A stretch of DNA of 51,121 bases from Chloroflexota bacterium (GCA_031369685.1 JANMPD010000008.1:1-51121); one strand, 5' to 3'. Shown: positions 6,980-51,121, counted from the first letter of the stretch. Made by a program: numbers and translations. The notes: generated by a model from the sequence alone, not told the origin.

Positions 6980-6992
6980 CGATCCGCCGGAC

Positions 6993-8675
6993 TCAGCCGG
7001 CCTCGAGCGCGGGTGCCTCGAAGACGAACTCCCCGCCGACGACCGTACCGACCACCAACGTGTCGCCAATGGGCTCCGCATCGGATGCATCGATGTTTCG
7101 GTCGAGAATCGCGAGATCGGCGAGCCGGCCGACGCCCAGCCAGCCCGCTTCATCCTGGCGGTTGACGAAGGCCGAGCCCACCGTCGCGGCGGTGAGGGCC
7201 TCGTCCAGGGTGATCCGCTCGGCGGGCAGAAACGGCGTGGCCTCGCGACGCTCGGGCCAGATCCGCCTGACCGCCACCTCGATCTGCGGAAACGGGTTCG
7301 CCGTGCTGACCGTCCAGTCCGAACCGAAGGCCAGGCGCGCGCCTGCACGCAGCAGCGACCCGAACGGGTATTGCCACTGCGACCGCTCGGGGCCGAGGAA
7401 CGGGATCGTGAGCTGATCCATCTGCGCCTCGTGGACGGCCCACAGCGGCTGCGCATTGGCGACCGCGCCCAGCGCCGCGAACCGCGGCAGGTCATCCGGG
7501 TGGATCAGCTGGATGTGGGCGATGTGATGGCGTGCGTCCCGCACGCCGTTCGCGGTCCTTGCTGCCTCGATGGCATCGAGCGCCTCGCGGACCGCCCGGT
7601 CCCCGATCGCGTGGTAATGGAGCTGGAAGCCCCGCCCATCGAGGGCAATCGAAAGCCGATCGAGCTCCTTGGGCTCGAGCGTTGTCATCCCGATGCCGCC
7701 GGTCGGCACGCCGTGCACGTCGAGGTAGGGGTCGAGGAGGGCCCCGGTCCGATTCTCGAGCACACCATCGACGAAGAACTTGATCGACGTGGCCTGGAGG
7801 CGGGCCGGCGCTGAGGACCCCGGTGCAGCTGAACTCGCCGCGGCCGCCACAGCGTCGCGAATGGCCACGAGCCCGTCGATCCCGCCAAATCCCCCGATCT
7901 CCCCGGCGCCCATCGAAAGCACCACGCGCGCCGTGAGCCCGCCGGACGATGCGACGGCCCGATACGCCTCGACCTCGTCTGGATCGACATTGGCGTCCTG
8001 CCAGCCGGTGATTCCCAGCGCGTGCAATTCCGCCTGGGCATCGACGATCGCCCGCTCGAGGACCGCCGGACGATGCTTCGGGATGAGGACTCGAACGAGC
8101 TCCATCGCCGCTTCCTGGAGGGTGCCCACCGGGGTACCGTCGGGGTCGCGTTCGATTCGCCCCATCGGCGGATCCGGCGTGTCGGCCGTGATCCCCGCCA
8201 TCTCGAGTGCTCGCGAGTTGACCCACGCGCCATGCCCGTCCCGGTTCGTGAGGAAGATCGGCCGATCCGGGACCACGCCGTCGAGCAACTCCCGCCGCGG
8301 GATCCCGCCGGGAAATGTTTCCATCGACCAGCCGTCCCCGACGATCCATTCGAACGCTGAGTGGCTGGTCGCATAGGCGGTCACCGCCGCCAGATGCGCC
8401 TCGACGGTGTCGAAGCGGTCGAGATCGCACGCAACGTGGCGCAGCCCGCCCGAGATCGGATGCGTGTGTGCGTCGGTGAATCCGGGCAGGACGGTTCGGC
8501 CTCGGAGATCGATCACCCGCGTCCGCTGCGTGCGCCGGCCGAGGACGTCCCGATCGCCACCGAGGGCCAGGATCCGATCACCGGCGATGGCCATCGCGGT
8601 TGCCTCGGAACCGGGTGGGCCCATGGTCCGGATGGAGCCGCCGTGCATGATCAGGTCCGGGTCGATGTCAGGCAT
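6993..8675 (-). CDS. Amidohydrolase family 3 (YtcJ-like) metal-dependent hydrolase
   Basis: DLRGRTVLPGFTDAHTH, DGHGAWVNSRAL, IKFFVDG, HAIGDRA, HIAH, FGSDW; start ATG 8675 has TACATT 7 nt upstream. Confidence 0.88.
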   Translation of the reverse strand: MPDIDPDLIMHGGSIRTMGPPGSEATAMAIAGDRILALGGDRDVLGRRTQRTRVIDLRGRTVLPGFTDAHTHPISGGLRHVACDLDRFDTVEAHLAAVTAYATSHSAFEWIVGDGWSMETFPGGIPRRELLDGVVPDRPIFLTNRDGHGAWVNSRALEMAGITADTPDPPMGRIERDPDGTPVGTLQEAAMELVRVLIPKHRPAVLERAIVDAQAELHALGITGWQDANVDPDEVEAYRAVASSGGLTARVVLSMGAGEIGGFGGIDGLVAIRDAVAAAASSAAPGSSAPARLQATSIKFFVDGVLENRTGALLDPYLDVHGVPTGGIGMTTLEPKELDRLSIALDGRGFQLHYHAIGDRAVREALDAIEAARTANGVRDARHHIAHIQLIHPDDLPRFAALGAVANAQPLWAVHEAQMDQLTIPFLGPERSQWQYPFGSLLRAGARLAFGSDWTVSTANPFPQIEVAVRRIWPERREATPFLPAERITLDEALTAATVGSAFVNRQDEAGWLGVGRLADLAILDRNIDASDAEPIGDTLVVGTVVGGEFVFEAPALEAG

Positions 8676-36628: not shown

Positions 36629-37584
36629 CGGCATCCCTTCGCGATCGCCTGACGATTGCCCCGGAAATCAACCACGCTCTCGCGACCGGGCGGCCAGTCG
36701 TCGCGCTCGAATCAACGCTCATCAGTCATGGGCTGCCGTATCCGCAGAACGTCGAGGTCGCCCGCGCCTCCGAGGCGGCCGTCCGCGAATCCGGCGCGGT
36801 GCCCGCAACGATCGCGATCCGGGATGGCCGGATCCTCGTGGGCCTGGACGACGTGGCGCTCGAGGAGCTGGCCACGGCGCCGTCGGGGAGCATGCTGAAG
36901 GCGGCGCGGCCGAGCCTGTCGGCGGCCCTGACGCGCGAGGGATGGTCCGCGACCACGGTTTCGGCCACGATGATCGCCGCTCACGCCGCCGGCATCCGGG
37001 TCTTCGCGACCGGCGGGATCGGCGGGGTCCACCGCGGGGCGCTTGGCGGTCGGGACGCGGTCCATCCACCCACGTTTGACATCTCCTCGGATCTCGAAGA
37101 GCTCGCCCGGACGCCGATGGTCATCGTGTGCGCCGGGCCGAAGGCCATCCTCGACGTTCCCGCCACGCTCGAGGTTCTCGAGACGCGCGGCGTCCCGGTC
37201 GTGGCCGTCGGACAGGTCGATCTCCCGGGATTCACGGCCCGTTCTGCGGGCATCAGGGCACCGTGGAGCGTCCCCGATATCCCGGCTGCTGCTGCCCTGG
37301 CAGAGGCGCACATCGCGCTCGGGATCGGCAGCAGCATCGTGATCTGCGTGCCGGTGCCCGCCGACGTCGCCCTGCCGGATGACGTTGCCCGGGCCGTCGC
37401 CGAGCGCGCGGCACGCGAAGCCGATGAGGCCCGCGTGCATGGTCCGGCGCTCACGCCCTGGCTCCTCGCCCGAATTGCGGAGATCACCGATGGCGCGTCC
37501 ATCCGTGCGAATACGGCCCTGATCATCAACGATGCCCGCGTGGCCGGCCAGATCGCGCTCTGGCTGGCGCACCTGCCGCAATGA
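36625..37584 (+). CDS. psuG: Pseudouridine-5'-phosphate glycosidase
   Basis: PVVALESTLISHGLPYPQN, VPATIAI, ATTVSATM, FATGGIGGVHRG, FDISSDLEEL, CAGPKAILD, LTPWLL. Confidence 0.93.
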   Translation: MTASLRDRLTIAPEINHALATGRPVVALESTLISHGLPYPQNVEVARASEAAVRESGAVPATIAIRDGRILVGLDDVALEELATAPSGSMLKAARPSLSAALTREGWSATTVSATMIAAHAAGIRVFATGGIGGVHRGALGGRDAVHPPTFDISSDLEELARTPMVIVCAGPKAILDVPATLEVLETRGVPVVAVGQVDLPGFTARSAGIRAPWSVPDIPAAAALAEAHIALGIGSSIVICVPVPADVALPDDVARAVAERAAREADEARVHGPALTPWLLARIAEITDGASIRANTALIINDARVAGQIALWLAHLPQ

Positions 37585-38426
37585 TCGAGGGCCTGCTCGA
37601 GCCCGGCAGCGAGATCTATTCCCTGCTCGGCAACCTCGTTGTCGTTTCGGTCCTGATGACCGGGCTCTGGCTGGTGTCGATCCTCGTTCGGGACGCCTCG
37701 ATCGTCGACATCTTCTGGGGCATGGCTTTCATCGCGATCATCTGGGCGCAGTACGCCCAGTCGTGGCTGATGCAGGGACCGGCCTGCGGCGACAACTGCG
37801 CCCAACCGTGGCCGCCGGCGACCGCGCTGATCGTCCCGGTTCTCGTCACGGTCTGGGGCCTGCGCCTGTCCTTCTACCTCGCGTGGAGAAACCTGGGCAG
37901 GGGCGAGGACTTCCGCTACGTCCGCATGCGGGAACGGTTCGGATCCAGGTTCCCCCTGATCAGCCTGATCGTCGTCTTCCTGCTCCAGGGCCTCCTCGCC
38001 TGGGTCGTCGCGCTGCCGGCACAGGTTGCGACCCGGACCCTGGAGCTGGACCCATGGTCACCCATCGCGGTCGCAGGCATCGCGCTGTGGGCCGTCGGCC
38101 TCGCCTTCGAGACGATCGGAGACCTCCAACTGGCGAGCTTCAAGCGCGATCCCCAGAACCAGGGCCAAGTGATGGACCGCGGCCTCTGGCGCTGCACCCG
38201 CCACCCGAACTTTTTCGGTGACTTCTGCGTGTGGTGGGGCATCTTCCTGATCGCCGCATCGATCGGTGCCTGGTGGACGGTGATCGGGCCGATCCTGATG
38301 TCGATTCTCCTCATCCGCGTGTCGGGCGCGGGGCTGCTGGAGCAGACGATCGGCGAACGTCGGCCCGGCTACGTCGACTACGCCCGACGGACGAGCGGCT
38401 TCTTTCCACGGCCACCGCGCCCATGA
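37581..38426 (+). CDS. DUF1295 membrane protein (steroid 5-alpha reductase-like)
   Basis: SIVDIFWG, WGLRL, GEDFRY, ETIGDLQL, GLWRCTRHPNFFG, TSGFFP. Confidence 0.85.
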   Translation: MIEGLLEPGSEIYSLLGNLVVVSVLMTGLWLVSILVRDASIVDIFWGMAFIAIIWAQYAQSWLMQGPACGDNCAQPWPPATALIVPVLVTVWGLRLSFYLAWRNLGRGEDFRYVRMRERFGSRFPLISLIVVFLLQGLLAWVVALPAQVATRTLELDPWSPIAVAGIALWAVGLAFETIGDLQLASFKRDPQNQGQVMDRGLWRCTRHPNFFGDFCVWWGIFLIAASIGAWWTVIGPILMSILLIRVSGAGLLEQTIGERRPGYVDYARRTSGFFPRPPRP

Positions 38427-39451
38427 ACGAGGCGATCCCGCCGTTCGCGATCGAGGTGGACGCGGTTCGCCGTGTCTACGCGGCCAAACCCGCGCCCGTC
38501 GTCGCCCTCGAGGGGATCGACCTGCGGGTGGAACCAGGCGAATTCTTCGGTCTGCTCGGTCCGAACGGTGCCGGCAAGACCACGCTCATCAAGATCCTCA
38601 CGACGCTCCTGCTGCCCTCGTCAGGCCATGCCCGTGTCTTTGGCTTCGATGTCGAGCGGGACACGAAGAAGATCCGCAGGATCATGAACATGGTCGCCGG
38701 CGGCGAGCAGTCGGGGTACGGGATCCTCACCGTCCGCGAGCAGCTCTGGATGTTCACCCAGTTCTACGGCCTGACGGGGGGCGACGGCTGGCGGCGCGTC
38801 GACGAGCTCATCGAGGCGGTGGGCCTCGCCGAGCAGCGGCTCCAGCGGGTCAGCACGCTCTCGACCGGGCAGCGCCAGAAGATGAACCTCGCCCGCGGGC
38901 TGCTCAACGATCCCTGGATCCTCTTCCTCGACGAGCCGACGCTCGGGTTGGACGTATCGGCCGCCCGGTCGCTGCGCGAGCTCATCGTCAATTGGAAGCA
39001 CGCCGTGCCGGGCCGGACGATCCTCATCACCACGCACTACATGGCCGAGGCCGACGAGCTGTGCGATCGGATCGCCATCGTCGATCGCGGTCGGATCCTG
39101 GCCATCGGGTCTCCAGAGGAGTTGAAGCGCCGCGTTCAACGAGAGTCGATCTTCCGGCTGGAGCTTGACCACCTCGTCGGTGGCGCGGCCGCGATTGCCA
39201 GGCTCCCCGGTGTCGTCAGCGCGAGCGAGGCGGCCGTCGGCCCGGAAGCCGGAGCTCGCCAGACGGTGGTCATGAACCTCGTCCTCGAGGACGACGGTGC
39301 CCTCGGCCAGGTCGTCGGTGCCCTCGCCCGTACGGGATCCGAGATCCTCGGGCTACGGAAGTCGGAACCGACGCTCGAAGACGTCTTCGTGGAGCTGGTC
39401 GGCCGGGGCTTCGCCGAGTCAGATTTGGACGCAGCCGAGGCATCGGCCTGA
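38423..39451 (+). CDS. ABC-2 type exporter ATP-binding protein
   Basis: GPNGAGKTT, LSTGQRQ, FLDEPT, TTHYM; ATG 38423 overlaps the upstream stop. Confidence 0.92.
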   Translation: MNEAIPPFAIEVDAVRRVYAAKPAPVVALEGIDLRVEPGEFFGLLGPNGAGKTTLIKILTTLLLPSSGHARVFGFDVERDTKKIRRIMNMVAGGEQSGYGILTVREQLWMFTQFYGLTGGDGWRRVDELIEAVGLAEQRLQRVSTLSTGQRQKMNLARGLLNDPWILFLDEPTLGLDVSAARSLRELIVNWKHAVPGRTILITTHYMAEADELCDRIAIVDRGRILAIGSPEELKRRVQRESIFRLELDHLVGGAAAIARLPGVVSASEAAVGPEAGARQTVVMNLVLEDDGALGQVVGALARTGSEILGLRKSEPTLEDVFVELVGRGFAESDLDAAEASA

Positions 39452-40338
39452 TGGCCGCGCCGATCGATTTCGTCGGACGTTCGGGTTCTGGTCCCCGCGA
39501 GGCCGCCGATTGGAGCCGTCGCCAGGAACTGATGACCGACCTTCGATCCGTCCGTGGACGTGCCTACCCGCGAATCATCGGGCTCATGCGTGAGCCGTCG
39601 TGGGTGCTGTTCGAGATCCTTCTGCCCTTCCTCTCGACGTCGGCGTTCGTGTTCGTCTACCGGGCCATCGGCGCGCCGCAGGCCTACGTCGGGTTCGTGG
39701 TCCTGGGCGGAGCACTGACGGCGTTCTGGCTGAACGTCATCTGGATGATGGCGAACCAGCTCTGGTGGGAGAAGAGCCAGGGCAACCTGGAGCTGTACTT
39801 CGCGGCGCCGATGCACTTCATGTCGATCCTGTTCGGGATGGCCCTTGGCGGCATGTTCATGAGCTCGACCCGAGCGCTCGCCGTGCTGCTCATCGCGGGC
39901 ACGCTCTTCGGTGTCACCTTCAGCGTCGATCAGTGGGCCCTCCTGGTCAGCGTGTTCGTGTTGACCCTGGGTGCGCTGTATGGGCTTGGGATGGTCCTGG
40001 CGAGCCTGTTCCTGGTCTGGGGCCGCGAGGCCTGGCACCTGGGCCAGATGCTCACCGAGCCGGTCTATTTCGTGTCCGGGCTGAACTTCCCGGTCGCCCG
40101 GCTTGGGTTCCTCGGCGCCCTGTCGGTCGCGTTCATCCCGCTCGCCACCGGCCTCGACGCCATGCGCCAGCTGGTGTTCGCGGATGCCCCGTTTCCCGTC
40201 GGGACGCCGGCTCCGCTCGTCGAGGTCGCGATCCTCGGGCTGATGACGGTCGTGTCAATCGTCGGCGCGCGCTGGATGCTGATCACGATGGAACGACGGG
40301 CGCGGCGCGACGGTCGGTTGTCGGTGCGCTGGCAATGA
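39451..40338 (+). CDS. ABC-2 type permease
   Basis: About 6 TM helices, EKSQGNLE, SGLNFPV; follows the ATPase. Confidence 0.85.
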   Translation: MAAPIDFVGRSGSGPREAADWSRRQELMTDLRSVRGRAYPRIIGLMREPSWVLFEILLPFLSTSAFVFVYRAIGAPQAYVGFVVLGGALTAFWLNVIWMMANQLWWEKSQGNLELYFAAPMHFMSILFGMALGGMFMSSTRALAVLLIAGTLFGVTFSVDQWALLVSVFVLTLGALYGLGMVLASLFLVWGREAWHLGQMLTEPVYFVSGLNFPVARLGFLGALSVAFIPLATGLDAMRQLVFADAPFPVGTPAPLVEVAILGLMTVVSIVGARWMLITMERRARRDGRLSVRWQ

Positions 40339-41303
40339 CCGCGGCGGCCGCCCCGGCTCCCGGACCCGACCCATCCCACCGTGCCGCCGTGGCACGCTTT
40401 GACTTCGCGAAGGCCGAGGGGCGCGGGATCCAGGACTTCCTTCGAACCTTCGCCGTCGCGGTTCGCCTCGGCTGGCAGCTCGAGGCCAACTGGACCGACC
40501 CGTTCCTGTTCTTCATCTACTCCGTCGCCAAGCCGGTCAGTTCCGCGCTGATCCTCGTGGTCATGCTCGAGGTGATCGGTGGCGAGGCAGGACGTGATTT
40601 CCGCCCGTTCGTGGTCGTCGGGAGCGCGCTGTGGGCCTTCGTCGTCAGCGGCATCGCCGGGCTCGCCTGGTCGATCCTCGAGGACCGCGAGCGCTACCGG
40701 GTCCTGAAGTACGTGTACGTGAGTCCGAGCGATTTTCTGACCGTCCTGATCGGGCGCGGCGTCGCCCGGCTCGGGGTCGGCCTGGCTGGCGCGGTCATCA
40801 CCCTCGTGGTCGGCGTCACGGCGCTGGGCGTGCCCTTTGATCCCGCGACCGTGGACTGGCTGCTCCTTGCAGCCGTGTTCGTCCTCGGCCTCGGCTCGAT
40901 CATCGGTGTCGGCCTCCTCATGGCCGGGATCGTGATCCAGACGCGCCAGGAATCGTGGAGCTATCCGGAGGCGTTCGCGGGCGCGATCTTTCTCGTGGCG
41001 GGCGCCGTGTTTCCGCTCGGCGTTCTGCCGGCACCCGTCCAGGTGATCGGCCTGCTCACCCCGTTGAGCTGGTGGATTGCCGGGGTTCGTCGGGCGTTGT
41101 TCGTGGATGGCCCGGGTTCGATAGGGGGCGAAGGAACAGTATTCGCCAGCCTGTTCGGTCATCCCCAGCCCTCGCCGGCGGAGATCGTTCTCGCCTTGCT
41201 CGCCACGGGGGCCCTCGTTACACTCGGCGCAGTGGCCGTGTTCCGGATCAGCGACCGGCGCGCGAAGCAGGCGGGTCTGTACGATCGAACGACTGGCTCC
41301 TAG
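40335..41303 (+). CDS. ABC-2 type permease
   Basis: ATG 40335 (ATGA overlap); TM helices, GAVFPLGVLP, PLSWW. Confidence 0.85.
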   Translation: MTAAAAPAPGPDPSHRAAVARFDFAKAEGRGIQDFLRTFAVAVRLGWQLEANWTDPFLFFIYSVAKPVSSALILVVMLEVIGGEAGRDFRPFVVVGSALWAFVVSGIAGLAWSILEDRERYRVLKYVYVSPSDFLTVLIGRGVARLGVGLAGAVITLVVGVTALGVPFDPATVDWLLLAAVFVLGLGSIIGVGLLMAGIVIQTRQESWSYPEAFAGAIFLVAGAVFPLGVLPAPVQVIGLLTPLSWWIAGVRRALFVDGPGSIGGEGTVFASLFGHPQPSPAEIVLALLATGALVTLGAVAVFRISDRRAKQAGLYDRTTGS

Positions 41304-41338
41304 GGGCCGCGACATCCCGCGTAGACCAGGGAGAATCG

Positions 41339-41860
41339 ATGCGCATCTATGAGGGCAGTCCCCGCCAGGATTTCGAGGAGGTCCTCCGCTCCGTCGGCGC
41401 CTACCTCGATCAGCGCGGGATGAAGGACGTGATCGTCATGGAGGCGCCGGACGGGTTCATCGTCCAGGGCCTGGCTCGAGTCGGGTCATCGGCGAGCACG
41501 TGGTCGGAAGCCATCGGCCAGATGACGAAGGAGACCATGACCTTCCTGGACGAGGACATCGGGAAGTTCATGGACGAGTCGGTCGCCCGCCGCGGAACGG
41601 GTCCGCAGGCGCTGCTGCCGCCACCCGGACGATACGAGCACGCCTTTCGGGTCATCGGTCACTACATCGACGAGCAGAAGCCCAAGGACATGTTCTTCTT
41701 CGAGCAGGACGGGGCGTTTGTCCTGCGGCTGCACGTGGTGAGCCAGAACAGCGACCACCACACGCTCGCGGAGTTCACGCGCGATGACGTCGAGGCGCTC
41801 ATCGCCCGAGGGCCGACGTTCCGACTGCCACCCAGACCAACAGGCCAGCAGGACCACTGA
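41339..41860 (+). CDS. Hypothetical soluble protein with an internal domain duplication
   Basis: ATG 41339 after AGGGAG; halves FEEVLRSVGAYLDQRGMKDVIVMEAPDGFIV and YEHAFRVIGHYIDEQKPKDMFFFEQDGAFVL. Confidence 0.8.
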   Translation: MRIYEGSPRQDFEEVLRSVGAYLDQRGMKDVIVMEAPDGFIVQGLARVGSSASTWSEAIGQMTKETMTFLDEDIGKFMDESVARRGTGPQALLPPPGRYEHAFRVIGHYIDEQKPKDMFFFEQDGAFVLRLHVVSQNSDHHTLAEFTRDDVEALIARGPTFRLPPRPTGQQDH

Positions 41861-42112: not shown

Positions 42113-42318
42113 CCGCGCCCTCGAGCAACCGACCGCCGGGTCGCCGTCGCGTCGACCGGGAATGGTGGTCAGGTTGCCGATGGCCTTTCGGCGCGTCGCG
42201 GTCCGCCTCCTCGGCTAGCTTGCTCTTGTCGATTTGATCTCCGAGCGAAACGAATCGGGTTGCGTCGACGCCATACCCTGCAGATCCGGCCATAGGCGCC
42301 GGCAACCTGTGAGGGACC

Positions 42319-42879
42319 GTGAGCGGACGGGAGCTTGTCGAGCTGGCACAGCGAGGCGATCACGACGCCTTCGCCGTGCTCGCCACGGCGGCGTCTGCCC
42401 GCCTCGATGCGGCCGCCCGCCTGATCCTTCGGGACCGCGAGCTCGCGCGCGATGCGGTCCAGAACGCGCTGGTGCGCGCCTGGCGAGACCTGCCCAGGCT
42501 TCGTGATCCGGACCGGTTCGATGCCTGGCTTCACCGCCTGCTCGTGAATGCCTGCCTCGATGAGGCCCGCCGGCGCCGGCGACGCCCCGCTGAGGTGGAG
42601 ATGCTTCCCACTGACATGTATTCATCGGCCGGAGAGGTGCATCACCTCGATGACCGCGATCTCGTGGAACGAGCCCTCGGTCGCCTCGAGCCGGAGAACC
42701 GGGCTCTGGTCGTCCTCCACTACTACCTGGGCTACCCGGTTCCGGCCGCGGCTGCGTCGCTCGGTATGTCGCTCCCGGCCGCGAAGTCCCGGTTGCACCG
42801 GGCGCTCGAAGCCATGCGTCATGCCCTGACATCCGAATTCACTGGTCCTGCCGAGCCCGAAGGAGGCCGAATCTCATGA
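42319..42879 (+). CDS. ECF sigma-70 factor (module 1)
   Basis: LVELAQRGDHDAF, ARDAVQNALVRAW, FDAWLHR, region 4 with KSRLHRA. Confidence 0.92.
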   Translation: MSGRELVELAQRGDHDAFAVLATAASARLDAAARLILRDRELARDAVQNALVRAWRDLPRLRDPDRFDAWLHRLLVNACLDEARRRRRRPAEVEMLPTDMYSSAGEVHHLDDRDLVERALGRLEPENRALVVLHYYLGYPVPAAAASLGMSLPAAKSRLHRALEAMRHALTSEFTGPAEPEGGRIS

Positions 42880-44180
42880 CGGCCTTCCTCGGCTTCGACC
42901 CGTTCGAGCGGAGGATCTCCGACGCCTTCGAGGAGATCACCGACGCTCGACGCCCCGACTACCTCGACGACATCCTCCAGCTGACCGCGCGGACATCACA
43001 GCGGCCGCGCTGGTCCTTCCTCGAAAGGTGGCTTCCCGTGGATCTCGCTGCGCCCAGGCCGACGGCCCTGATGGGCGTCCGGCTGGGTCCCATTCTCCTG
43101 CTCATCGCAATCGCTCTGGTCCTTGCCGCGCTGGCCGCCGCATATGTCGGCTCACAGCGGACTCCGCTGCCGTTTGGGCCGGCCGCAAACGGGCTGATCG
43201 CGTACCCGAAGGACGGTGCCCTGTACGTTCGGAACACGCTCGACGCAGACGGGCGTCTCATTGTCCGGGGCGAGGGGACGGTATCGACACCCTACTTCTC
43301 GCCCGACGGCAAACTGGTCGCGTACATCGAGACGATCGCGCGAATCGACCACCTCATGGTGGCCAGCCCCGATGGCTCGAATTCCCGGGAAATCCTCAAA
43401 CTCCCTGTGGGCGACTTTAACGCGGTCTGGAGGCCGGATAGCCGTGCCTTTGCCGTTGTCGTTCAGGCCAACCTGAGCCCGCGCCTATCGATCGTGCCGA
43501 TCGACGGCTCTGCTCCGACCTCGATCGAACTTGGCTCGGCGCTGCCGACGACTGATCTCGCATGGCGCCCACCGGACGGGTTGGACCTGCTGGTACGTGG
43601 AGTACGGGAAGACCGGACGGTCGACCTTTTCCTCGTGCCGGGTGATGGGTCGCCCGTACACGCCATCGGGCTCCGGAGCGACCTGCTCTTCGGCACCGAC
43701 TGGGACAATTCGGGCCCTGCCTGGTCGCTCGATGGGACCCGGATCGCCTATAACCAGGTCGAGAAGGATCCTAAGACGGGCATCACCCAGTTTCGATTGC
43801 ACATCGTCAATGCGGATGGGACCGGAGACCAAGCTCTGCCGGGTCCGACCGACCCAAACGTCATGGAGTCATGGCCTGCATTCGCGCCCGATGGACGGAC
43901 CATCCTCGTCCATCGCTGGACGTGGAAGTCCAACAACGGCGGTGAAGGGTGGGTCGCGGTCATGCCAGCGGACGGCTCCCGTCCGGCTCGAGACATCGGC
44001 CCACGGATCCCCGGTGGCGAAGACACGGGCCTCATCAAGACCTGGTCTCCGGATGGGACGCGTGTCCTCATGCGTTCGGACAACACCCATGAAGCCTTCT
44101 CGATCGACCCGATGAACGGGACGTTCGAGCTCCTTGCCTGGACGAGCGATCTGCCTGATTGGCAGCGCGTCCAGCGCTGA
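42876..44180 (+). CDS. Putative anti-sigma: short cytoplasmic N-terminus, one TM, TolB-like (PD40) beta-propeller
   Basis: ATGA overlap with sigma; TM ILLLIAIALVLAALAAAYVG; repeats FSPDGK, WRPDS, WSLDGT, FAPDGR, WSPDGT. Confidence 0.75.
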   Translation: MTAFLGFDPFERRISDAFEEITDARRPDYLDDILQLTARTSQRPRWSFLERWLPVDLAAPRPTALMGVRLGPILLLIAIALVLAALAAAYVGSQRTPLPFGPAANGLIAYPKDGALYVRNTLDADGRLIVRGEGTVSTPYFSPDGKLVAYIETIARIDHLMVASPDGSNSREILKLPVGDFNAVWRPDSRAFAVVVQANLSPRLSIVPIDGSAPTSIELGSALPTTDLAWRPPDGLDLLVRGVREDRTVDLFLVPGDGSPVHAIGLRSDLLFGTDWDNSGPAWSLDGTRIAYNQVEKDPKTGITQFRLHIVNADGTGDQALPGPTDPNVMESWPAFAPDGRTILVHRWTWKSNNGGEGWVAVMPADGSRPARDIGPRIPGGEDTGLIKTWSPDGTRVLMRSDNTHEAFSIDPMNGTFELLAWTSDLPDWQRVQR

Positions 44181-44283
44181 ACCCGAACGGCAATCGGTTG
44201 CCCGGACAGGAGGTGAGCGATAGCACGAGCTCCCAAGCCCGCGCTCATCCAAAGGGCAAACCATCAACGAGAGGAGGAAACAC

Positions 44284-44928
44284 ATGTTCAGGTTCACGCC
44301 ACGTCGATCAAGAGCGCGTCGTCGAGCCTTCATCGGAGGGGTCGCCGTCATCGCTGCCCTGATGTTCGCGGCGCCCGCTGCGGCGCGGACGCCGGTGGAT
44401 CCCGGGACGCTCAACCCCGCGCCGCCCGATTTCTTCAACGCCCAGTGCTACGCCGGAGCCGGCGGGACCGTCTGCAGCCTGGCCTTCTCGGACGACCCGA
44501 TCGTGGATGAGCCGAGCGGGATCGTCTGTGGCGGTGTCGAGATCCTGTTCTCGCAGGAGCGGTCGGTCGTCGGCAAGCGTTTCTACGACGCGAACGGCAA
44601 CCTGACCCAGCGACACTTCCGCGAATACCTGAGCGGCACCCTGTCGAACCCGGCCACGGGGAAGGTCGTCCCGTGGATCGAGCACGACACGGTCATTCAG
44701 AACCTGTCCGTCCCAGGCGACCTTGGCACGGGCCAGATCAAGTTCAGCGGATTGCTCATGCGCATCTGGGTCCCCGGGGGCGGGACGATCCTGAACGACG
44801 TCGGCACCGTCATCCGGGATTCGGCGACCGACGAGACCACCTTCTCGGCCGGCAAGCATCCCTTCGATGCGTACTTCGTCGATGGCGACGCGAACGCACT
44901 CCAGCCGCTGTGTGACGCGTTGAAGTAG
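44284..44928 (+). CDS. Secreted 4-Cys hypothetical protein (module 1)
   Basis: Strong SD GAGGAGG; signal peptide with RRRAFI and AAA cleavage site; paralog of 49074..49703. Confidence 0.8.
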   Translation: MFRFTPRRSRARRRAFIGGVAVIAALMFAAPAAARTPVDPGTLNPAPPDFFNAQCYAGAGGTVCSLAFSDDPIVDEPSGIVCGGVEILFSQERSVVGKRFYDANGNLTQRHFREYLSGTLSNPATGKVVPWIEHDTVIQNLSVPGDLGTGQIKFSGLLMRIWVPGGGTILNDVGTVIRDSATDETTFSAGKHPFDAYFVDGDANALQPLCDALK

Positions 44929-44947
44929 CGATCTTCCTGCGAGTAAT

Positions 44948-44984
44948 CGTGGCGCTCGTCGAGACCGTTCTCGCGAGCGCCACG
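44948..44984 (+). other. Intergenic stem-loop without U-tract (module 1)
   Basis: CGTGGCGCTCG-T-CGAGA CCGT TCTCG-CGAGCGCCACG. Confidence 0.65.
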
Positions 44985-45028
44985 CCAACCGATCCACGCA
45001 CGCTGAGAACATGAAAGGGAAGGACAAA

Positions 45029-46141
45029 ATGCATCTCGTGGCAGCCAGGTTCGTCGTACCGTTGATCGCGCTGGCGTTCGTCGCCGAAGCGTGTTCCGCC
45101 GCGTCACTGGCGACAGACGTACCTGGATCCGCGCCCGCAAGCACAGCTCCATCGCCGAGCGAACCCCCGTCCCTATCCGTGGGCCCGACGACCGGGCCCG
45201 AGATCGTCGTCAAGGACGGCGAGCCATGGTTTCTATCCGCCTGGTACCTGCCGGACAAGGCGACCAAAGACCTCTTCCTGACTCGTCCAGACGGTACCGA
45301 TTCCCACGCGATCCTCACGGATCTCCCCGGTGAGCACATCGGGGGCGCTTGGGCACCCGACGGAAGCCGGTTCGCGTTCGCGAATCGGGATGCGGCAACG
45401 CCCCTTGGGTCGATCTGGACGGCAAACGCAGATGGCTCGGGGGCGGCGCTGCTGACCGACGGTGGCGGCGACTGCCCTGACGGTATCTTCCACCCCAGCT
45501 GGTCGCCGGACGGCTCGAAGTTTTCGGTCATCTGCTATCCGGATCCAGGCGGCAAGGAAGGATCCGTCGCCATCTTCGATCCTGCGACGTCGACAGTGAC
45601 GCGCCTGTACACGGTGGCGTGGCCTGAGCACCTGGACGGCCGGGCCGAGTGGTCCCCCGACGGAGCATCACTAGCATTCACCATCTACCACTGGGATCCC
45701 ACAGACGAGTTCGTCGACGGATCGGTAGTGGCCGTGATTCCGGCCGGGGGCGGCTTAGTGAACCGCATCACGACATTCGACATGGACATGTCGGCGGGCA
45801 ACTGGAGCCCGGACGGCAAGGAGCTTGCCATTGCCTCGAACGGCTTTGGCATGCGGCACGCCTCGGACGAGCCATCAAACGTCTATGCGATCAATCCGGA
45901 CGGGGCCGGGCTGCGCCAGATCACGAGGTCATCCGTCGACGGGTACATGCGCATCAGCGCGCCTGCGTGGACCCCGGATGGCCGGATGCTCGTCGCCATC
46001 GGGATCGCCTACGCGAGCGGAGGCACGGTGGCGACCGTCAGCGACATCCAGCTTGGATTTGTGGATCCATCCGGGGGCGAGCCGGTTCTCCTGCCGCCGA
46101 CGATCCACGGGGGGCGCCTGCGCCCGACGCCGAAGACGTGA
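45029..46141 (+). CDS. TolB-like (PD40) beta-propeller lipoprotein (module 1)
   Basis: ATG 45029 after GGAAGGA (or 45011); lipobox-like AEA-C, S/P/T linker, DGEPW, repeated W(S/A/T)PDG, ends RLRPTPKT. Confidence 0.8.
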   Translation: MHLVAARFVVPLIALAFVAEACSAASLATDVPGSAPASTAPSPSEPPSLSVGPTTGPEIVVKDGEPWFLSAWYLPDKATKDLFLTRPDGTDSHAILTDLPGEHIGGAWAPDGSRFAFANRDAATPLGSIWTANADGSGAALLTDGGGDCPDGIFHPSWSPDGSKFSVICYPDPGGKEGSVAIFDPATSTVTRLYTVAWPEHLDGRAEWSPDGASLAFTIYHWDPTDEFVDGSVVAVIPAGGGLVNRITTFDMDMSAGNWSPDGKELAIASNGFGMRHASDEPSNVYAINPDGAGLRQITRSSVDGYMRISAPAWTPDGRMLVAIGIAYASGGTVATVSDIQLGFVDPSGGEPVLLPPTIHGGRLRPTPKT

Positions 46142-46188
46142 CCTGCCAATTCGCCACGCCACCAGCATCTGACCGCAGGAGACCCGAG

Positions 46189-47121
46189 ATGAGCCCGACA
46201 CGCTTGATGACGTGGATCGCGTGGTTGATCCTGATCGCGGTCCTGTCTGGCTGCGGCGGGCTCCCGGCGACGTCGGCCGTAACCGCAACGCCCGCCATCA
46301 GTACGGACCCGACCCCAATCGCTCCCACCGGGACGGCCGAGGTCCCGACATCCGCCGCGGAGCCGATCCACGTCTTGATCCTTGGCGATTCGATCGGGAT
46401 TCCGCGGATGGGCTGCGGATCGTGCGAGGGCTTCGACGCCCAGTACGCCACATTGCTCGAGGCGCAGTCGGGGCGACCGGTCAAGGTCGACAACCAGGCC
46501 CGCCCGAACGCCCGCATTCAGGATCTCCAGTCGGTCGTCGACACCGAGACCGGGGTCCAGGAGCTGATCGGGGCGGCGGACATCGTCATCGTGACGATCG
46601 GCTACAACAACGGTCCGAACTGGGATACGGAGGATCCGTGCCACGCGCCCGTCGCCAATACCGACGCCGAAAGCATTCGCGATTTCCTCGAGTTGAACGA
46701 TGACTGCGTGGCGGAGACACTAGAGCTGTACGGGACGCGTCTCGAGATGCTCTACGACCGGATCGAGGTGCTGGCAGCCGGCCGATCCCAGGTCCGGGTA
46801 ACCCTCGGCGTGTACGCCAACCTCGACGGCAACCCCGGTGGCGACGGGACCTTTGCCGACATCACCGCGGACGAGATGGCCCGGGCGATCGCCCGGTACA
46901 ACGCGACGATCGACAAATGGAACGTCATGGACTGCGCTGCGGCTCTGCCGCACGGCTTCGTCTGTGGCGACATCCATCGTGCCTTCAATGGTCCCGACGG
47001 GACCGCGAAGGTAGCCGGCCTCGTAAACCCGAGCGACTACATTCACCCAAACGTTGCCGGCCAGGCGAAGATTGCCGAGCTCCTCGAAGGCATCGACGTC
47101 AGTAGGGCGGTAGGGAACTAG
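46189..47121 (+). CDS. SGNH/GDSL hydrolase lipoprotein
   Basis: ATG 46189 after AGGAG; lipobox LSG-C; ILGDSIG, TIGYNN, DYIHPN. Confidence 0.85.
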   Translation: MSPTRLMTWIAWLILIAVLSGCGGLPATSAVTATPAISTDPTPIAPTGTAEVPTSAAEPIHVLILGDSIGIPRMGCGSCEGFDAQYATLLEAQSGRPVKVDNQARPNARIQDLQSVVDTETGVQELIGAADIVIVTIGYNNGPNWDTEDPCHAPVANTDAESIRDFLELNDDCVAETLELYGTRLEMLYDRIEVLAAGRSQVRVTLGVYANLDGNPGGDGTFADITADEMARAIARYNATIDKWNVMDCAAALPHGFVCGDIHRAFNGPDGTAKVAGLVNPSDYIHPNVAGQAKIAELLEGIDVSRAVGN

Positions 47122-47282
47122 CGAAGAATCGCCCTGGCCCGCGGGTTCGAGGCCAGGCCTCCGTTTCCAGAAGGCCCGAGTCATGTGCGACTCCCGTACA
47201 CGTTCCAACCTGGCGGCGCATTCGGCTTGAGTCACTCGGGGGCGTCTGAGACACTTCGGCCCTCGTCCAGCATCTGTAGGGC

Positions 47283-47828
47283 ATGGTGAGCGACGTCACT
47301 GTCCAGGGCGCGATCCCAGCGACGATCGTCGAGGCGGCAGCGGCCGGCGATGGGGCGGCCTTTGCGCGGATCGTCCGCGCCCACCACGACGACATGGTTC
47401 GTGTGTGCCAGGTGATCTGCGGCGACCCGGACCTCGCCCAGGACGCGGCCCAATCGGCGTGGCCCATCGCCTTGCGCAAGCTATCCACGCTGCGCGACCC
47501 GGCCCGGCTTCGACCCTGGCTGGTCACGGTTGCCGCGAACGAGGCCCGCCAGATGCTGCGCCGGCAGCGCCGAGACCGCGTCACATCGATCGAGTTCGCT
47601 GACATCCACTCGAGCCTGGCCGACCCCGGGGCACATCCGGACGATGCGGATCTCATTGCCGCCATACGCCTCCTGCCTCCCGAAGACCGTGCCCTGCTTG
47701 CGATGCGCTACGTCGCCGGGTTCGATGCCACGGAGATCGGCCGAGCCCTCGGGCTCTCGGCATCCGGTGTTCGGACCCGACTCTCGCGACTGGTGTCGCG
47801 ACTCCGATTGGAGCTGGGCGATGACTGA
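47283..47828 (+). CDS. ECF sigma-70 factor (module 2)
   Basis: AAAGDGAAFARIV, AQDAAQSAW, LRPWLVTVAANEAR, EIGRALGLSASGVRTRLSR. Confidence 0.92.
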   Translation: MVSDVTVQGAIPATIVEAAAAGDGAAFARIVRAHHDDMVRVCQVICGDPDLAQDAAQSAWPIALRKLSTLRDPARLRPWLVTVAANEARQMLRRQRRDRVTSIEFADIHSSLADPGAHPDDADLIAAIRLLPPEDRALLAMRYVAGFDATEIGRALGLSASGVRTRLSRLVSRLRLELGDD

Positions 47829-49032
47829 CCATACGTTCGAAGCCCGCCTCGAGCGGGTGCTCCGTGGCTACGCAGAGACAGCGGTCCGCCCGATCGATGC
47901 CGCCGAGATTGCCGATCAGGCCCGAGCCGCCGGCGCCACGGCGCGTCCGGTTCCAGCCATCTCGGTTCGCCGGTACGCCTGGCTCGCGGTGGCGGCCATC
48001 CTGATTGCCCTCCTGCTCGAGGCGGTGTTCCTGCTCACGGTGGGCCGGCGCGCCCAGCTCGCCGTGGTGATCCCAACGGTCTCTCCGTCCGGCGTGCCGG
48101 TCGCGCTTCCGATCGAGTTCGCCGGAGCGTGGATCGCGGACCAACCGGACGACCTATCGTTCGGCGATCAGCAAGGCAAGGCGCGCATGTCCTTCGTGGT
48201 GGAATCCAACGGGACGTTCGCGTACGTGAGCCTCGCCTCCGGCCCGCGTGAGTACCTCCAGTCCACGGCCACGGCCACGAACGATCAGGTTCAAGTGGTG
48301 GCCCGCGCACTCGGAGATCCAGTCACATCGGGCGGGACCCTCCTGCGCGCCTGCGATCTCAAGGAGATCGGGACCTATCGGATCGGCCGCTCCACTGATG
48401 GCCTGCGGCTGACCCTCAGCCTGATCGACGATGCGTGTCCGTCGCGGTCAGCCGTTCTGGCTCGGACGTGGATCCGCTCGCTCGGGGCACCCAACAGCGG
48501 TGGGCTGGGCGTGTTCGATGCCTTCAGGCCTCTCTTCACCGTCGAGCTGCCCGTGGGGAGCTACTCGATCTATCGGACGACGGACTCGTTGACCGTGGTA
48601 CAGCCCGTTCCCGAGTTCCAGTTCCTCGCGTTCAAGGATCCGCAGGGCTTCAACGACCCGTGCAATCTGGCCGCGGGCCGTTACCCGATCGAACAGGGCG
48701 CCGACGCCGTCGTCGCCTACTTCCGGCAACTTCGTGGGTTCACGGTCGACTCGACGAACGAGCTTGTGGTCGATGGCCACCGCGCGGTCCGCCTCGTACT
48801 CCATGCCAACTCCGACGCGAGCTGCCCAGATGGCGGGCTCGCGGAGTATCAGCCGAAGGCCGAGACGGCTGACTTCCATTGGTTCCTGCGTCCGGGCGAC
48901 ACGGACAGCCTGGTCATCGTCGAGCTAGCCGACGCGACCGTGATGTTCGAGGTTCTACCGGCGCCGCATCCGCTGGAGTCGAGCGTGATCGACTCGATTC
49001 GGTTCCTGGAGCAGCTCCCAACCACGCCCTGA
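47821..49032 (+). CDS. Putative anti-sigma: short cytoplasmic N-terminus, one TM, unrecognised extracytoplasmic domains
   Basis: Overlaps the sigma stop by 8 nt; MTDHTFEARLERVLR; TM YAWLAVAAILIALLLEAVFLLTVG; four Cys in the C-terminal region. Confidence 0.7.
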   Translation: MTDHTFEARLERVLRGYAETAVRPIDAAEIADQARAAGATARPVPAISVRRYAWLAVAAILIALLLEAVFLLTVGRRAQLAVVIPTVSPSGVPVALPIEFAGAWIADQPDDLSFGDQQGKARMSFVVESNGTFAYVSLASGPREYLQSTATATNDQVQVVARALGDPVTSGGTLLRACDLKEIGTYRIGRSTDGLRLTLSLIDDACPSRSAVLARTWIRSLGAPNSGGLGVFDAFRPLFTVELPVGSYSIYRTTDSLTVVQPVPEFQFLAFKDPQGFNDPCNLAAGRYPIEQGADAVVAYFRQLRGFTVDSTNELVVDGHRAVRLVLHANSDASCPDGGLAEYQPKAETADFHWFLRPGDTDSLVIVELADATVMFEVLPAPHPLESSVIDSIRFLEQLPTTP

Positions 49033-49073
49033 CCTGCCGCAGATCGCGGTCACACCCCCGAAGGAGTTCCCTC

Positions 49074-49703
49074 ATGTTCGTATTCAACCGTGTGATTCGC
49101 CGCCTCGCCGTGGTACCGCTCGGCGCGATCCTCGCGCTGGGCTCAGTGAGCGCGGTCGCGGCCGGGCAACCGGTGAGCGGCGTGCTCAACCCGCCGCCAC
49201 CGAGCTTCTACACGTGCATGGCCATCGGCGACGGCACCATCTGTCGGGCCTCGACATCCGACACCTATGCGGACGAGGCGACCGGGATCATGTGCGGCAG
49301 CGGAGCAAGCCAGTTCGAAGTCATCGACTCCGGAACGCGGAATGTCGAGGCGACTCGGTACTACGATCGCAACGGCAACCTGACCCTGCGAGCCCGGACC
49401 TTCTCGTTCCGTGGCGCCCATGTCAGCAACCCGCTGACAGGAGCGTCGATCTATTACAAGCAGCGCAACGTCGACCGCGACGAGCTCGCCGTTCCCGGCG
49501 ATTTCGACTCGGCTACCACGTACGGGCACGGTGTCGTCGCGATGACCGTCCCCGGCTTTGGCGCGGTCTTGCTCGAGGCCGGACGGGTTGTTATCGGTCC
49601 AAGCGGTAACGTCGAGTCCCAGTCCGGTCGATCGGACGTGGCCGACTACTTTGCCGGCCAGACCGAGATCGTCGCCAACCTGTGTGCCGTCCTCGGCGGC
49701 TGA
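49074..49703 (+). CDS. Secreted 4-Cys hypothetical protein (module 2)
   Basis: ATG 49074 after AAGGAG; signal peptide ending AVAA; paralog of 44284..44928. Confidence 0.8.
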   Translation: MFVFNRVIRRLAVVPLGAILALGSVSAVAAGQPVSGVLNPPPPSFYTCMAIGDGTICRASTSDTYADEATGIMCGSGASQFEVIDSGTRNVEATRYYDRNGNLTLRARTFSFRGAHVSNPLTGASIYYKQRNVDRDELAVPGDFDSATTYGHGVVAMTVPGFGAVLLEAGRVVIGPSGNVESQSGRSDVADYFAGQTEIVANLCAVLGG

Positions 49704-49714
49704 AGTCCAGCGCA

Positions 49715-49751
49715 GCGGGTGGTGCCCGGGATCTCGACTGGGCACCACCGC
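49715..49751 (+). other. Intergenic stem-loop without U-tract (module 2)
   Basis: GCGGGTGGTGCCCGG-GATCTCGA-CTGGGCACCACCGC. Confidence 0.65.
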
Positions 49752-49805
49752 AGTCCCCAAGTCGCGACCCTCCCTTGAGGTCACGACATTCACGAAGGAG
49801 ACCTC

Positions 49806-50924
49806 ATGATCGCGTCCCGCCGATTAGTCGCCGTCTTGTCCCTACTCACAACCGTGGCGGTTGCTTGCTCGTCCGCTTCAGTAGGCACTCCCGGCACGTC
49901 GGCCACGCCCAGCGCAACCCCGACCGCGACCTCAGTTGCCACGACCGCCGCGCCCACGCCGATCGCCGTCCTCGATGGCGAGCCGTGGATCGTCTACGAG
50001 CAGGGGGGTCATACCGACTCAGCGGGCGTGGACGGGACGGGCATCTCGATGGTCCGCCCGGACGGCCCGGAGCCGCACCTACTGATCACGACCCGCGCAG
50101 AGCATCCGGACTGGTCTCCCGACGGCAAGCTGATCGCCGTCGTCGCTGAGCTTGCGAACGACGTCTCGGAGATATGGACGGTGAACGCAGACGGGACGGA
50201 CGCGAAGACGCTGATCGCGTGTGTCGAAGCGCCATGTGTGGGATTTGCGGCACCGGCGTGGTCACGCGACGGAAAGCAGTTGGCCTTCATGCGGTACCTC
50301 CAACCGGCCGCCAACGGGTACGAGGACGATCAAATCGCGATCGAAGTGCTCGACCTCGCGACGGGCACGACGCGGGTGGTCGCGATGTCTCCCGTTGTCG
50401 CCGATTCCGAGTACGTCGAATACATCTCTCCGCGCTGGTCCCCGGATGGCATACAGATCGTGTTCACGGTCATGCGGTACCCGACACCACCGACCGACGA
50501 GAACATCCTGAGCAGCTCCATCGCCGTCGTGAAGGCGGACGGCTCCGAGGTCGATGCGCCCCGCATCCTGACCGACCCGGCGCTGTTCGGTTCCTATCCT
50601 GATTGGAGCCCTGACGGCGTGCGCATCGTGTTCAACACGTACCCGATCGGCTCGTTCCAGGACACGACCAAGGCACAGAATCTTTACACGATCCGGCCTG
50701 ACGGCACGGAAATGACCCAGATCACCCACTTCGGTGAGCACGACGCCCGGGCCATCGAGCCAACCTGGACCCCCGACGGCAGGCGGATCATCTTCGTGCA
50801 CATCACGCCCGACGCCAACAACCCGTGGGGTGCCCGTCACATCGCCTTTGTCGACGCCGACGGCTCGAATCTGAACGTCCTTGAATGGTTCGGGACCCAT
50901 CCGCGACTGCGGCCAACGCCCTGA
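49806..50924 (+). CDS. TolB-like (PD40) beta-propeller lipoprotein (module 2)
   Basis: SD AAGGAG; lipobox AVA-C, S/T/P linker, DGEPW, repeated WSPDG, ends RLRPTP. Confidence 0.82.
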   Translation: MIASRRLVAVLSLLTTVAVACSSASVGTPGTSATPSATPTATSVATTAAPTPIAVLDGEPWIVYEQGGHTDSAGVDGTGISMVRPDGPEPHLLITTRAEHPDWSPDGKLIAVVAELANDVSEIWTVNADGTDAKTLIACVEAPCVGFAAPAWSRDGKQLAFMRYLQPAANGYEDDQIAIEVLDLATGTTRVVAMSPVVADSEYVEYISPRWSPDGIQIVFTVMRYPTPPTDENILSSSIAVVKADGSEVDAPRILTDPALFGSYPDWSPDGVRIVFNTYPIGSFQDTTKAQNLYTIRPDGTEMTQITHFGEHDARAIEPTWTPDGRRIIFVHITPDANNPWGARHIAFVDADGSNLNVLEWFGTHPRLRPTP

Positions 50925-50940
50925 CCATCACGCTGCAGGG

Positions 50941-50969
50941 TTGCCCAGGGACCTGTCTTCCGGTACCAT
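50941..50969 (+). promoter_or_regulatory. Housekeeping sigma-70-type promoter of pyrG
   Basis: TTGCCC (50941-46), 17-nt spacer, TACCAT (50964-69); SD GGAGG before ATG 50997. Confidence 0.65.
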
Positions 50970-50996
50970 TCGAAAAACCCCCGGAGGACTCGATCC

Positions 50997-51121
50997 ATGG
51001 CGAAGTATGTCTTTGTGACCGGAGGCGTCACCTCCTCACTCGGCAAGGGCATCACCGCCGCCAGCATCGGTCGATTGCTGAAGGCGCGGGGTCTCAAGGT
51101 CTCCATCCTCAAGCTGGATCC
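50997..51121 (+). CDS. pyrG: CTP synthase, 5' end; runs off the window
   Basis: Not in the ORF track. [41 protein letters not shown]. Confidence 0.96.

Follow-up and report, generated by a model that had tools for sequence, protein, structure and literature searches.

The window examined here is the whole stretch of 51,121 nucleotides (nt) from a Chloroflexota bacterium (GCA_031369685.1, JANMPD010000008.1:1-51121), which is contig C225 of an assembly of 2.87 Mb in 340 contigs that is about 80% complete and has about 68% G+C. The closest protein matches are named Candidatus Limnocylindrales or Chloroflexota in their sources. Positions 42319 to 50924 hold nine co-oriented genes, all on the plus strand, among which two sets follow one another, each with an extracytoplasmic function (ECF) sigma factor (sig), an anti-sigma-like single-pass transmembrane protein (TM), a secreted protein with four cysteines (the 4-Cys protein, cys) and a PD40 beta-propeller lipoprotein (lipo). 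The proteins were matched to families with Pfam and NCBIfam and the copies were compared with each other by BLASTP. The genes and features are as follows:

42247-42276, + strand: sig1-type promoter-like motif, GAAACGAAT-N14-CGCCATAC, about 40 nt 5' of the sig1 start codon
42319-42879, + strand: sig1, ECF-type sigma factor, 186 amino acids (aa); Sigma70_r2 E 9e-12, Sigma70_r4_2 E 6e-13, Sigma70_ECF E 2e-5
42876-44180, + strand: TM1, anti-sigma-like single-pass membrane protein, 434 aa, with a PD40 propeller outside; PD40 E 4e-13
44284-44928, + strand: cys1, secreted 4-Cys protein, 214 aa; no Pfam or NCBIfam match
44948-44984, + strand: GC-rich, terminator-like hairpin 3' of cys1, without a T run; window fold -37.9 kcal/mol, z -3.9 against 200 shuffles
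45011-46141, + strand: lipo1, PD40 beta-propeller lipoprotein, 376 aa; PD40 E 3e-14
46189-47121, + strand: SGNH/GDSL-type hydrolase lipoprotein, 310 aa; Lipase_GDSL_2 E 8e-9, LSGC lipobox
47249-47277, + strand: sig2-type promoter-like motif, (G)GACACTT-N13-GCATCTGT, ending 5 nt 5' of the sig2 ATG
47283-47828, + strand: sig2, ECF-type sigma factor, 181 aa; Sigma70_r2 E 5e-12, Sigma70_r4_2 E 7e-11
47821-49032, + strand: TM2, anti-sigma-like single-pass membrane protein, 403 aa, with two beta-rich outer domains; no Pfam match
49074-49703, + strand: cys2, secreted 4-Cys protein, 209 aa, paralog of cys1 (BLASTP against cys1)
49715-49751, + strand: GC-rich, terminator-like hairpin 3' of cys2, without a T run; z -2.8
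49806-50924, + strand: lipo2, PD40 beta-propeller lipoprotein, 372 aa, paralog of lipo1; PD40 E 6e-24

The initial annotation of this stretch had described the same gene order at 42319-46141 and at 47283-50924, and the open reading frames (ORFs) and family matches bear this out. The two secreted proteins are paralogs as it had proposed (33% identity, E 2e-25), as are the two lipoproteins (32% identity, E 1e-37), and the hairpin that it placed between their genes is present in each copy (z -3.9 and -2.8). The sigma factors are 36% identical (E 5e-18), and TM1 and TM2 have no meaningful similarity to one another (best E 0.002, over a short patch). That the copies are old also holds: identities between them are only 32-36%, at least seven paralogs in the genome are closer to sig1 (136-212 bits) than sig2 is (67.6 bits), and each window copy has orthologs of its own elsewhere. 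A recent duplication is rejected on the identities and on the nearer sig1 paralogs, the nearest of which (212 bits) lies on contig C332 with a TM1-like partner and no cys gene. Two things had been passed over, namely that TM1 too carries a PD40 propeller, as its outer domain, and that a gene for an SGNH/GDSL lipoprotein separates the two sets, 47 nt 3' of lipo1. No paralog of this last protein was found in the genome, nor was it seen in the related loci, and its gene is not a conserved member of the set.

Both sigma factors have the make-up of ECF (group IV) sigma factors, with regions 2 and 4 only and fewer than about 200 aa. They match Sigma70_r2, Sigma70_r4_2 and Sigma70_ECF above or near the cut-offs, and the sigma70-ECF model TIGR02937 at 64 (sig1) and 71 (sig2) bits against a cut-off of 42.9; the best NCBIfam match of each is the SigE-family model TIGR02983, but the scores of 107 and 88 bits stay below its cut-off of 141.55. 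The genome holds 33 ECF sigma ORFs by our own profile and 36 Sigma70_r4_2 matches over the cut-off, and we assign sig1 and sig2 to different ECF subfamilies.

We regard TM1 and TM2 as putative anti-sigma factors on the basis of gene overlap, topology and a conserved N-terminus. The start of TM1 overlaps the stop of sig1 by 4 nt and that of TM2 overlaps the end of sig2 by 8 nt. The topology that had been noted at first is confirmed: a short N-terminus carrying FERRI (TM1 residues 10-14) or FEARL (TM2 residues 6-10), one membrane segment, which in TM1 is a single hydrophobic stretch near residue 62, and outer domains that differ. Neither N-terminus contains HxxxCxxC or matches zf-HC2, the marks of a class I zinc-binding anti-sigma (ZAS) factor. 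The propeller outside TM1 is distantly like lipo2 (phmmer E 4e-9), and TM1 orthologs come after sigma genes at loci L003, L004, L006, L019, L023 and L070. The TM2 family comprises 83 homolog clusters, none with a Pfam entry, and its N-terminus is strongly conserved, with R9 and D26 invariant. An AlphaFold2 model of TM2 (mean predicted local distance difference test score, pLDDT, 86.3) has helices at 4-22 and 27-38, the membrane segment at 50-75 and beta domains at 102-220 and 228-396, of which the second weakly resembles PsbP, Mog1, DcrB and EagT6 in Foldseek (probability 0.98-1.00, target-normalised template-modelling score 0.38-0.57, E 4e-3 to 2e-2).

This type of partner is common in the genome, where most ECF sigma genes are followed by a same-strand gene for a protein with one early membrane segment. 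As read from the sequences, the short non-zinc N-terminus of TM1 and TM2 recurs in about 15 of these partners, as some 45-60 aa with the pattern F-[DE]-R-x-[IL] ... P-D-x-[LV] ... T-x-Q-R(-R) ... W, and five others have HxxxCxxC or a near form. Examples with the short N-terminus lie at C304:12620-13570, C304:14877-16121, C208:12668-13468, C332:26520-27791 and C96:18562-18855. The shared N-terminus looks like one widespread small anti-sigma domain type that the libraries do not name.

The 4-Cys proteins form a family without annotation. Neither cys1 nor cys2 matches a Pfam or NCBIfam family, a homolog search with cys1 returned 365 clusters that are all unnamed or 'hypothetical', and a profile search returned 604 clusters at E <= 0.001, of which 60 remain at E <= 1e-30; most are stand-alone proteins of 195-225 aa. 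Among the 120 cys1 homologs listed none has a precomputed Pfam entry, and since lipo1 matches in the same database carry accessions up to PF26550, this blank is not due to an old library. In their own genome cys1 and cys2 are each other's sole full-length paralogs; a third, distant cys-like ORF of 214 aa (G000:C142:994-1638), whose match (E 1.4e-8) is confined to the C-terminal half of the profile, adjoins a response-regulator gene. The four cysteines (C55, C64, C82 and C210) are invariant in an alignment of 18 sequences, and in 59 diverse members three are invariant and C64 nearly so, a pattern that suggests two disulfides. Many members carry twin arginines in the signal region (RRRAFIGG in cys1, IRRLAVV in cys2); these may indicate export by the twin-arginine translocation pathway, which would be odd for a disulfide-bonded protein.

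The AlphaFold2 model of cys1, made from 59 sequences, has a pLDDT of 94.2 and a predicted template-modelling score of 0.81, and consists of a signal helix, about ten long antiparallel strands (residues 54-191) and C-terminal helices. Foldseek found nothing for it in the PDB at E <= 0.001, ESM Atlas returned only cys1's own unnamed family, and the 59-member profile gave only chance-level matches to PDB sequences (best E 0.058). A wide search with VIA-align paired the model with the KdgM porin (Z 8.2, root-mean-square deviation (rmsd) 3.4, 107 aligned), TamA (Z 8.0) and NalP (Z 7.8); all three are long meander sheets whose scores lie at the background that the tool states, so that we do not place the protein in any fold family. 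The best-conserved motif apart from the cysteines, [FY]-YD-x-x-G-N-L at cys1 residues 100-107, resembles one YD repeat, and Pfam RHS_repeat is matched by three of the 59 members (best E 8e-4), cys1 and cys2 not among them. The long beta hairpins would also fit RHS/YD repeat proteins, but the family has a single motif in a mature protein of 180 residues and no shell-sized repeat array, and the resemblance is a lead only. Our guess is that the 4-Cys protein is an envelope or surface-binding protein.

The family is patchily distributed. It occurs in 22 of 301 class genomes (21 of 300 when G249 is left out of the tally), in 14 of the 154 high-quality ones and, as weak matches, in two of nine other genomes of the genus, and members are also present in Actinomycetota (Humibacillus, Pedococcus), Acidobacteriota, Methylomirabilota and Anaerolineales records. 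Tandem copies are found at L011, L022, L087 and L089.

To describe the gene order around these families, a census with cys as query covered 32 loci from species genomes and 18 class regions, with 55 cys genes (L064, identical to L020, was dropped), and a second set with TM2 as query covered 22 metagenome loci; families were counted with hidden Markov model profiles (cys, sigma, PD40) on six-frame ORFs and neighbours were checked with Pfam. In all 14 loci that extend 200 nt or more upstream, a sigma gene lies directly before the TM2 relative. Another 300 nt or more are available downstream in 17 loci, and there TM2 is followed by cys in 14, by PD40 in two (L087, where the order is TM2/PD40/cys/cys, and L108, TM2/PD40) and by nothing recognised in one (L106); the gap between TM2 and cys is 41-81 nt in 14 TM2-type loci. 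Starting from cys itself, 14 of 51 cases have a same-strand sigma gene no more than 2.6 kb upstream, where arithmetic from 33 sigma genes in 2.87 Mb gives a chance expectation of about 1.5%. One cultured carrier, Humibacillus xanthopallidus DSM 21776, has the order sigma/TM/cys (locus L008). Homologs of the secreted protein are coupled to ECF/TM pairs (14/17 and 14/51) but not confined to that setting: of 48 cys loci, 30 lack both a sigma and a PD40 neighbour. In a tree of 39 full-length cys domains (matches shorter than 480 nt, most of which are frameshifted or partial, were excluded), cys1 groups with the members from L003, L004, L005 and L006 and cys2 weakly with L066, and members linked to sigma or PD40 genes are scattered over several deep branches. 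This scatter implies that the link is old or was formed repeatedly, and often lost. Recurrent settings of another kind are ABC-2 transporter/cys/PNPOx/UbiA (L009, L018, L020, L026 and L030) and UvrD/cys/RibD_C/GH16 (L010 and L012).

Candidate promoters tie some of these genes together. The regions upstream of sig1 orthologs share the pattern GAAACGAAT-N14-CGCCATAC, of which the window site is the sole match in the 2.87 Mb of the assembly. When 688 kb of loci were scanned with one change allowed per block, 13 matches were obtained, eight of them 34-68 nt 5' of sigma genes and three 40-141 nt 5' of cys genes (L004, L006 and L065); the remaining two lie 671 nt 5' of a sigma fragment (L019) and with nothing downstream (L024). 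Outside the window the pattern precedes sig1-type sigma genes at L003, L004, L006, L019, L023, L034 and L070. A matrix built from the eight sigma sites only was then used to score 39 cys upstream regions against 4000 random windows; ten regions exceed the 99th percentile of the latter, and chance would give 0.4. We judge the matches at L004, L009, L010, L012, L013, L022 and L065 convincing, and below the threshold L018, L020, L030 and L064 carry a GGAACGAT...CGCCAGTA variant at unchanged distance. In the 3.6-Mb genome G301, to which L004 belongs, the exact pattern occurs twice only, before the sigma gene and before cys (reversed control, 0), and in G059 the single match precedes a sig1-type sigma gene.

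Another motif, GGGACACTT-N13-GCATCTGT, is common to the sig2 orthologs; in an alignment of 13 upstream regions its end lies about 5 nt 5' of the ATG. It precedes sigma genes at L087, L090, L092, L094, L098, L103 and L107, with two variants at L019, and in the window's own genome it is found as a strong site at 47249-47277 and a weak one on C179. The -10-like block ends 5 nt 5' of the ATG in the window and in at least ten orthologous loci, and the mRNA of the sig2 operon may be leaderless. At L023:11140-11167 a sig2-type motif lies 135 nt 5' of a PD40 propeller gene, the sole propeller gene seen with an ECF-type motif of its own. We infer from their recurrence before sigma genes that the two motifs are candidate subfamily-specific promoters.

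At the other end of the unit, uninterrupted stems of 10-16 pairs occur 3' of cys regardless of the next gene, several of them then followed by short T runs. When the 90 nt 3' of 50 cys stop codons were folded against mononucleotide shuffles, a cruder test than that used for the window hairpins, z was below -2.5 in 17 and below -2 in 20, with the window's cys1 copy at -1.9 and its cys2 copy at -4.8. A scan for terminators with a T run gave 0 sites, and neither window hairpin is followed by one; terminator hairpins without T runs are common in high-GC bacteria. As a strong hairpin is common 3' of cys, it would mark the end of the transcript, and so of the operon, after cys, and in the window it parts cys from lipo. 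Most simply, then, the hairpin would be the end of a sigma-TM-cys transcript.

With modest confidence, a little on the favourable side of even, we read the locus as two independent ECF sigma operons of different subfamilies, each coding for a sigma factor, a single-pass anti-sigma-like protein and a secreted 4-Cys protein, with PD40 lipoproteins as recurrent but optional neighbours. The unit is better read as three genes than as the four that were first proposed, since consistent coupling is found for the 4-Cys gene only. The TM protein would hold the sigma factor by its short two-helix cytoplasmic N-terminus until an outside cue, acting on the outer domain (the PD40 propeller of TM1, or the two beta domains of TM2, one of them PsbP/Mog1-like), frees it. 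The freed sigma factor would then read its own subfamily-specific promoter before the operon, and the result would be more sigma factor and the secretion of a disulfide-bonded, all-beta 4-Cys protein into the envelope, with the hairpin 3' of cys presumably ending or attenuating the transcript. This would be ordinary ECF logic, with a conserved, uncharacterised secreted family as the product. That stand-alone cys copies have an ECF-type promoter of their own favours a product over a co-sensor.

Several observations weigh against this reading of the locus as two three-gene operons. Neither TM1 nor TM2 matches an anti-sigma family in Pfam or NCBIfam, and promoters, operon limits and termination are all deduced from sequence. 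Among the sequencing runs found to cover 42200-51000 there are nine of DNA, one of them probably the source, and none of RNA. Neither cys1 nor cys2 has a motif of its own upstream in the window, so that their control would rest on co-transcription from the sigma promoters, with gaps of 103 and 41 nt to be crossed. Of the ten matrix sites, three (L016, L008 and L014) are doubtful because they overlap a gene start, and the single exact match in G170 (L084, C1:1358515-1358542, minus strand) faces away from an opposite-strand sigma gene at a distance of 120-230 nt and has no clear gene behind it. The majority of cys loci, 30 of the 48 for which both flanks were available, stand apart from sigma and PD40 genes; the cys tree shows no clustering of context labels (16 changes, with a mean of 15.7 after shuffling); and the loci are related to one another, so the counts overstate the independent support.

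The general ECF scheme, reviewed in PMC7826278, has much in common with the window: a two-domain sigma factor, an overlapping next gene, a partner with a short cytoplasmic N-terminus, one membrane segment and a large outer domain, and a promoter-like motif with an AAC-containing upstream block before the sigma gene. Here, in contrast, the partner lacks HxxxCxxC and any anti-sigma family match, its cytoplasmic part is only about 40-60 residues in two helices, and a conserved third gene comes from an undescribed family. The words Chloroflexi, propeller, PD40, WD40 and TolB do not occur in the main text of PMC7826278. The searches made of the literature on ECF or anti-sigma factors with PD40, beta-propeller or TolB-like domains yielded no description of the present gene context, a negative that holds for these searches, and the available portions of the literature on Limnocylindria sigma factors give only sigma factor counts.

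A third gene behind a sigma/anti-sigma pair recalls rpoE-rseA-rseB, in which rseB is the third gene, and the 4-Cys protein could be an extracytoplasmic co-regulator that tunes sigma release, as RseB/MucB does for RseA/MucA, by binding to a PD40 propeller or to the outer domain of either TM protein. We consider this unlikely. Both rpoE-rseA-rseB and algU-mucA-mucB share with the window a sigma factor, a membrane anti-sigma factor and then a secreted beta-rich protein, and the short gaps (41-81 nt in the 14 TM2-type loci) would fit such a role, as would the PD40 proteins of several kinds (anti-sigma ectodomains, lipoproteins and the TIG-PD40 protein of L017) that adjoin 14 of 55 cys genes. There is also a LolA-superfamily protein among the weak fold matches of the cys1 model (3buu, Z 6.6, rmsd 3.4, 93 aligned), but it too is within the tool's stated background, none of the 59 cys members matches Pfam MucB_RseB, and there is no sequence similarity to those proteins. 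What is more, one cys family is paired with two unrelated outer domains, tandem copies exist (the four loci given above), the four cysteines are conserved, and 30 of 48 copies stand alone in unrelated contexts, some of them keeping an ECF-type promoter, which is a better fit for a target gene. Bolder, and more doubtful still, is the idea that the 4-Cys protein is a new extracytoplasmic signalling partner, a small disulfide-locked beta-sheet protein that would dock on the propellers or other sensor domains of anti-sigma factors and on surface lipoproteins, relaying or buffering an envelope cue to ECF sigma factors of at least two subfamilies; the triad would then be a three-component sensor.

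The initial annotation had instead proposed a cassette of four genes with an exchangeable sensor and a fixed output pair, in which the 4-Cys protein and the PD40 lipoprotein might work as a complex. The exchangeable sensor stands, as unrelated TM proteins accompany one secreted family, but the fixed pair does not, and we give the cassette a rather low probability overall. Both window copies do have cys followed by a paralogous lipoprotein. The full order sigma/TM-PD40/cys/PD40 is found in the first copy, at L004 and at L019, with L003 cut at cys; cys followed by PD40 recurs at L025, L069 and L074, and L087 and L108 have PD40 behind TM2. With 14 PD40 ORFs in the genome, arithmetic puts chance adjacency far under the seven of 52 genome loci in which a PD40 gene lies directly downstream of cys. 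Those seven include the window's own two, however, and the count is zero of four in TM2-type loci for which 0.7 kb or more of downstream sequence is available; immediately upstream of cys, PD40 genes are found in 10 of 51 cases. The lipoproteins also occur without the secreted family. In G008 a lipo1 ortholog (62% identity) sits directly behind a sigma gene and a PD40 anti-sigma-like gene with no cys between, and in this genome, which is 94% complete, the family profile found no cys match, 10 of the 43 first-look candidates having been scored, so that the negative holds for this query. The window's own genome has a third lipo paralog, on C294, with neither sigma nor cys beside it, further sigma/TM/PD40 sets without cys are present at L004 and L023, and a strong hairpin lies between cys and lipo. 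PD40 lipoprotein and cys are therefore separate kinds of gene, each with a tendency in this lineage to lie behind ECF pairs, and at some loci both are present.

Least probable of all, and already disfavoured, is that the repeated order arose by chance or local rearrangement in genomes crowded with ECF pairs and PD40 genes, for which the 33-36 ECF sigma genes in 2.87 Mb, the sigma/TM/PD40 arrays at L004, L019 and L023 and the patchiness of cys (22/301 class genomes) could be cited, but which fits poorly with cys as the next gene in 14 of 17 TM2 loci, with a promoter-like motif common to sigma and cys genes and with a sigma-cys adjacency far over the expected 1.5% or so.

The lipoproteins themselves deserve a word. 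Cys28 of lipo1 is invariant in 43 aligned homologs, as expected of a lipoprotein, and the signal of lipo2 ends in the lipobox-like VAVAC; the lipobox of lipo1 itself, AEAC, has an unusual Glu at -2, which makes its processing less sure. Relatives of lipo1 are labelled 'Tol biopolymer transport system component' in their sources, and lipo1, lipo2 and the outer domain of TM1 share with TolB of the Tol-Pal system their PD40 propellers. They are not TolB, however: the TIGR02800 scores of TM1, lipo1 and lipo2 are 46.5, 56.3 and 82.5 bits against a cut-off of 343, no TolB N-terminal domain is matched, the proteins are lipid- or membrane-anchored, and no tol or pal genes lie nearby, the neighbours being an ABC-2 transporter, DUF1295 and the SGNH hydrolase. 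Propellers of the lipo1 type are rare, with matches at E <= 1e-40 in two of 92 other genomes (a family-level sample). In related loci, L004, L019 and L023 hold arrays of three or four successive sigma/TM/PD40 sets on one strand, which points to local expansion of such cassettes in related Chloroflexota, and the cys genes of L019 and L023 are split into two frames. Directly upstream of cys in L017, positions 4717-7899 encode a protein of 1060 aa with Big_9, PD40 and four TIG domains.

Just 5' of the sig1 set, 37581-41860 encodes a membrane protein of family DUF1295, an ABC ATPase whose C-terminus is DrrA-like, a pair of ABC-2 permeases and a protein of 173 aa that matches no family. In five other genomes (L009, L018, L020, L026 and L030) cys is divergent and adjoins an ABC-2 transporter of like make-up.

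ECF sigma systems rank as the third great pillar of signalling in bacteria, and to our knowledge neither the cue nor the product has been established for most ECF groups. The sig1-type regulon seems tiny, as the exact motif occurs in the 3.6 Mb of G301 only before sigma and cys, and its putative product is compact and confidently modelled, from a family of about 600 clusters that carries no annotation. At least one carrier, Humibacillus xanthopallidus DSM 21776, is in culture. The locus also documents a short non-zinc anti-sigma N-terminus that would be shared by about half of the ECF partners in its genome, and it may offer a cheap route to the function of an unnamed family, common among the Chloroflexota and Actinomycetota of soils and sediments.

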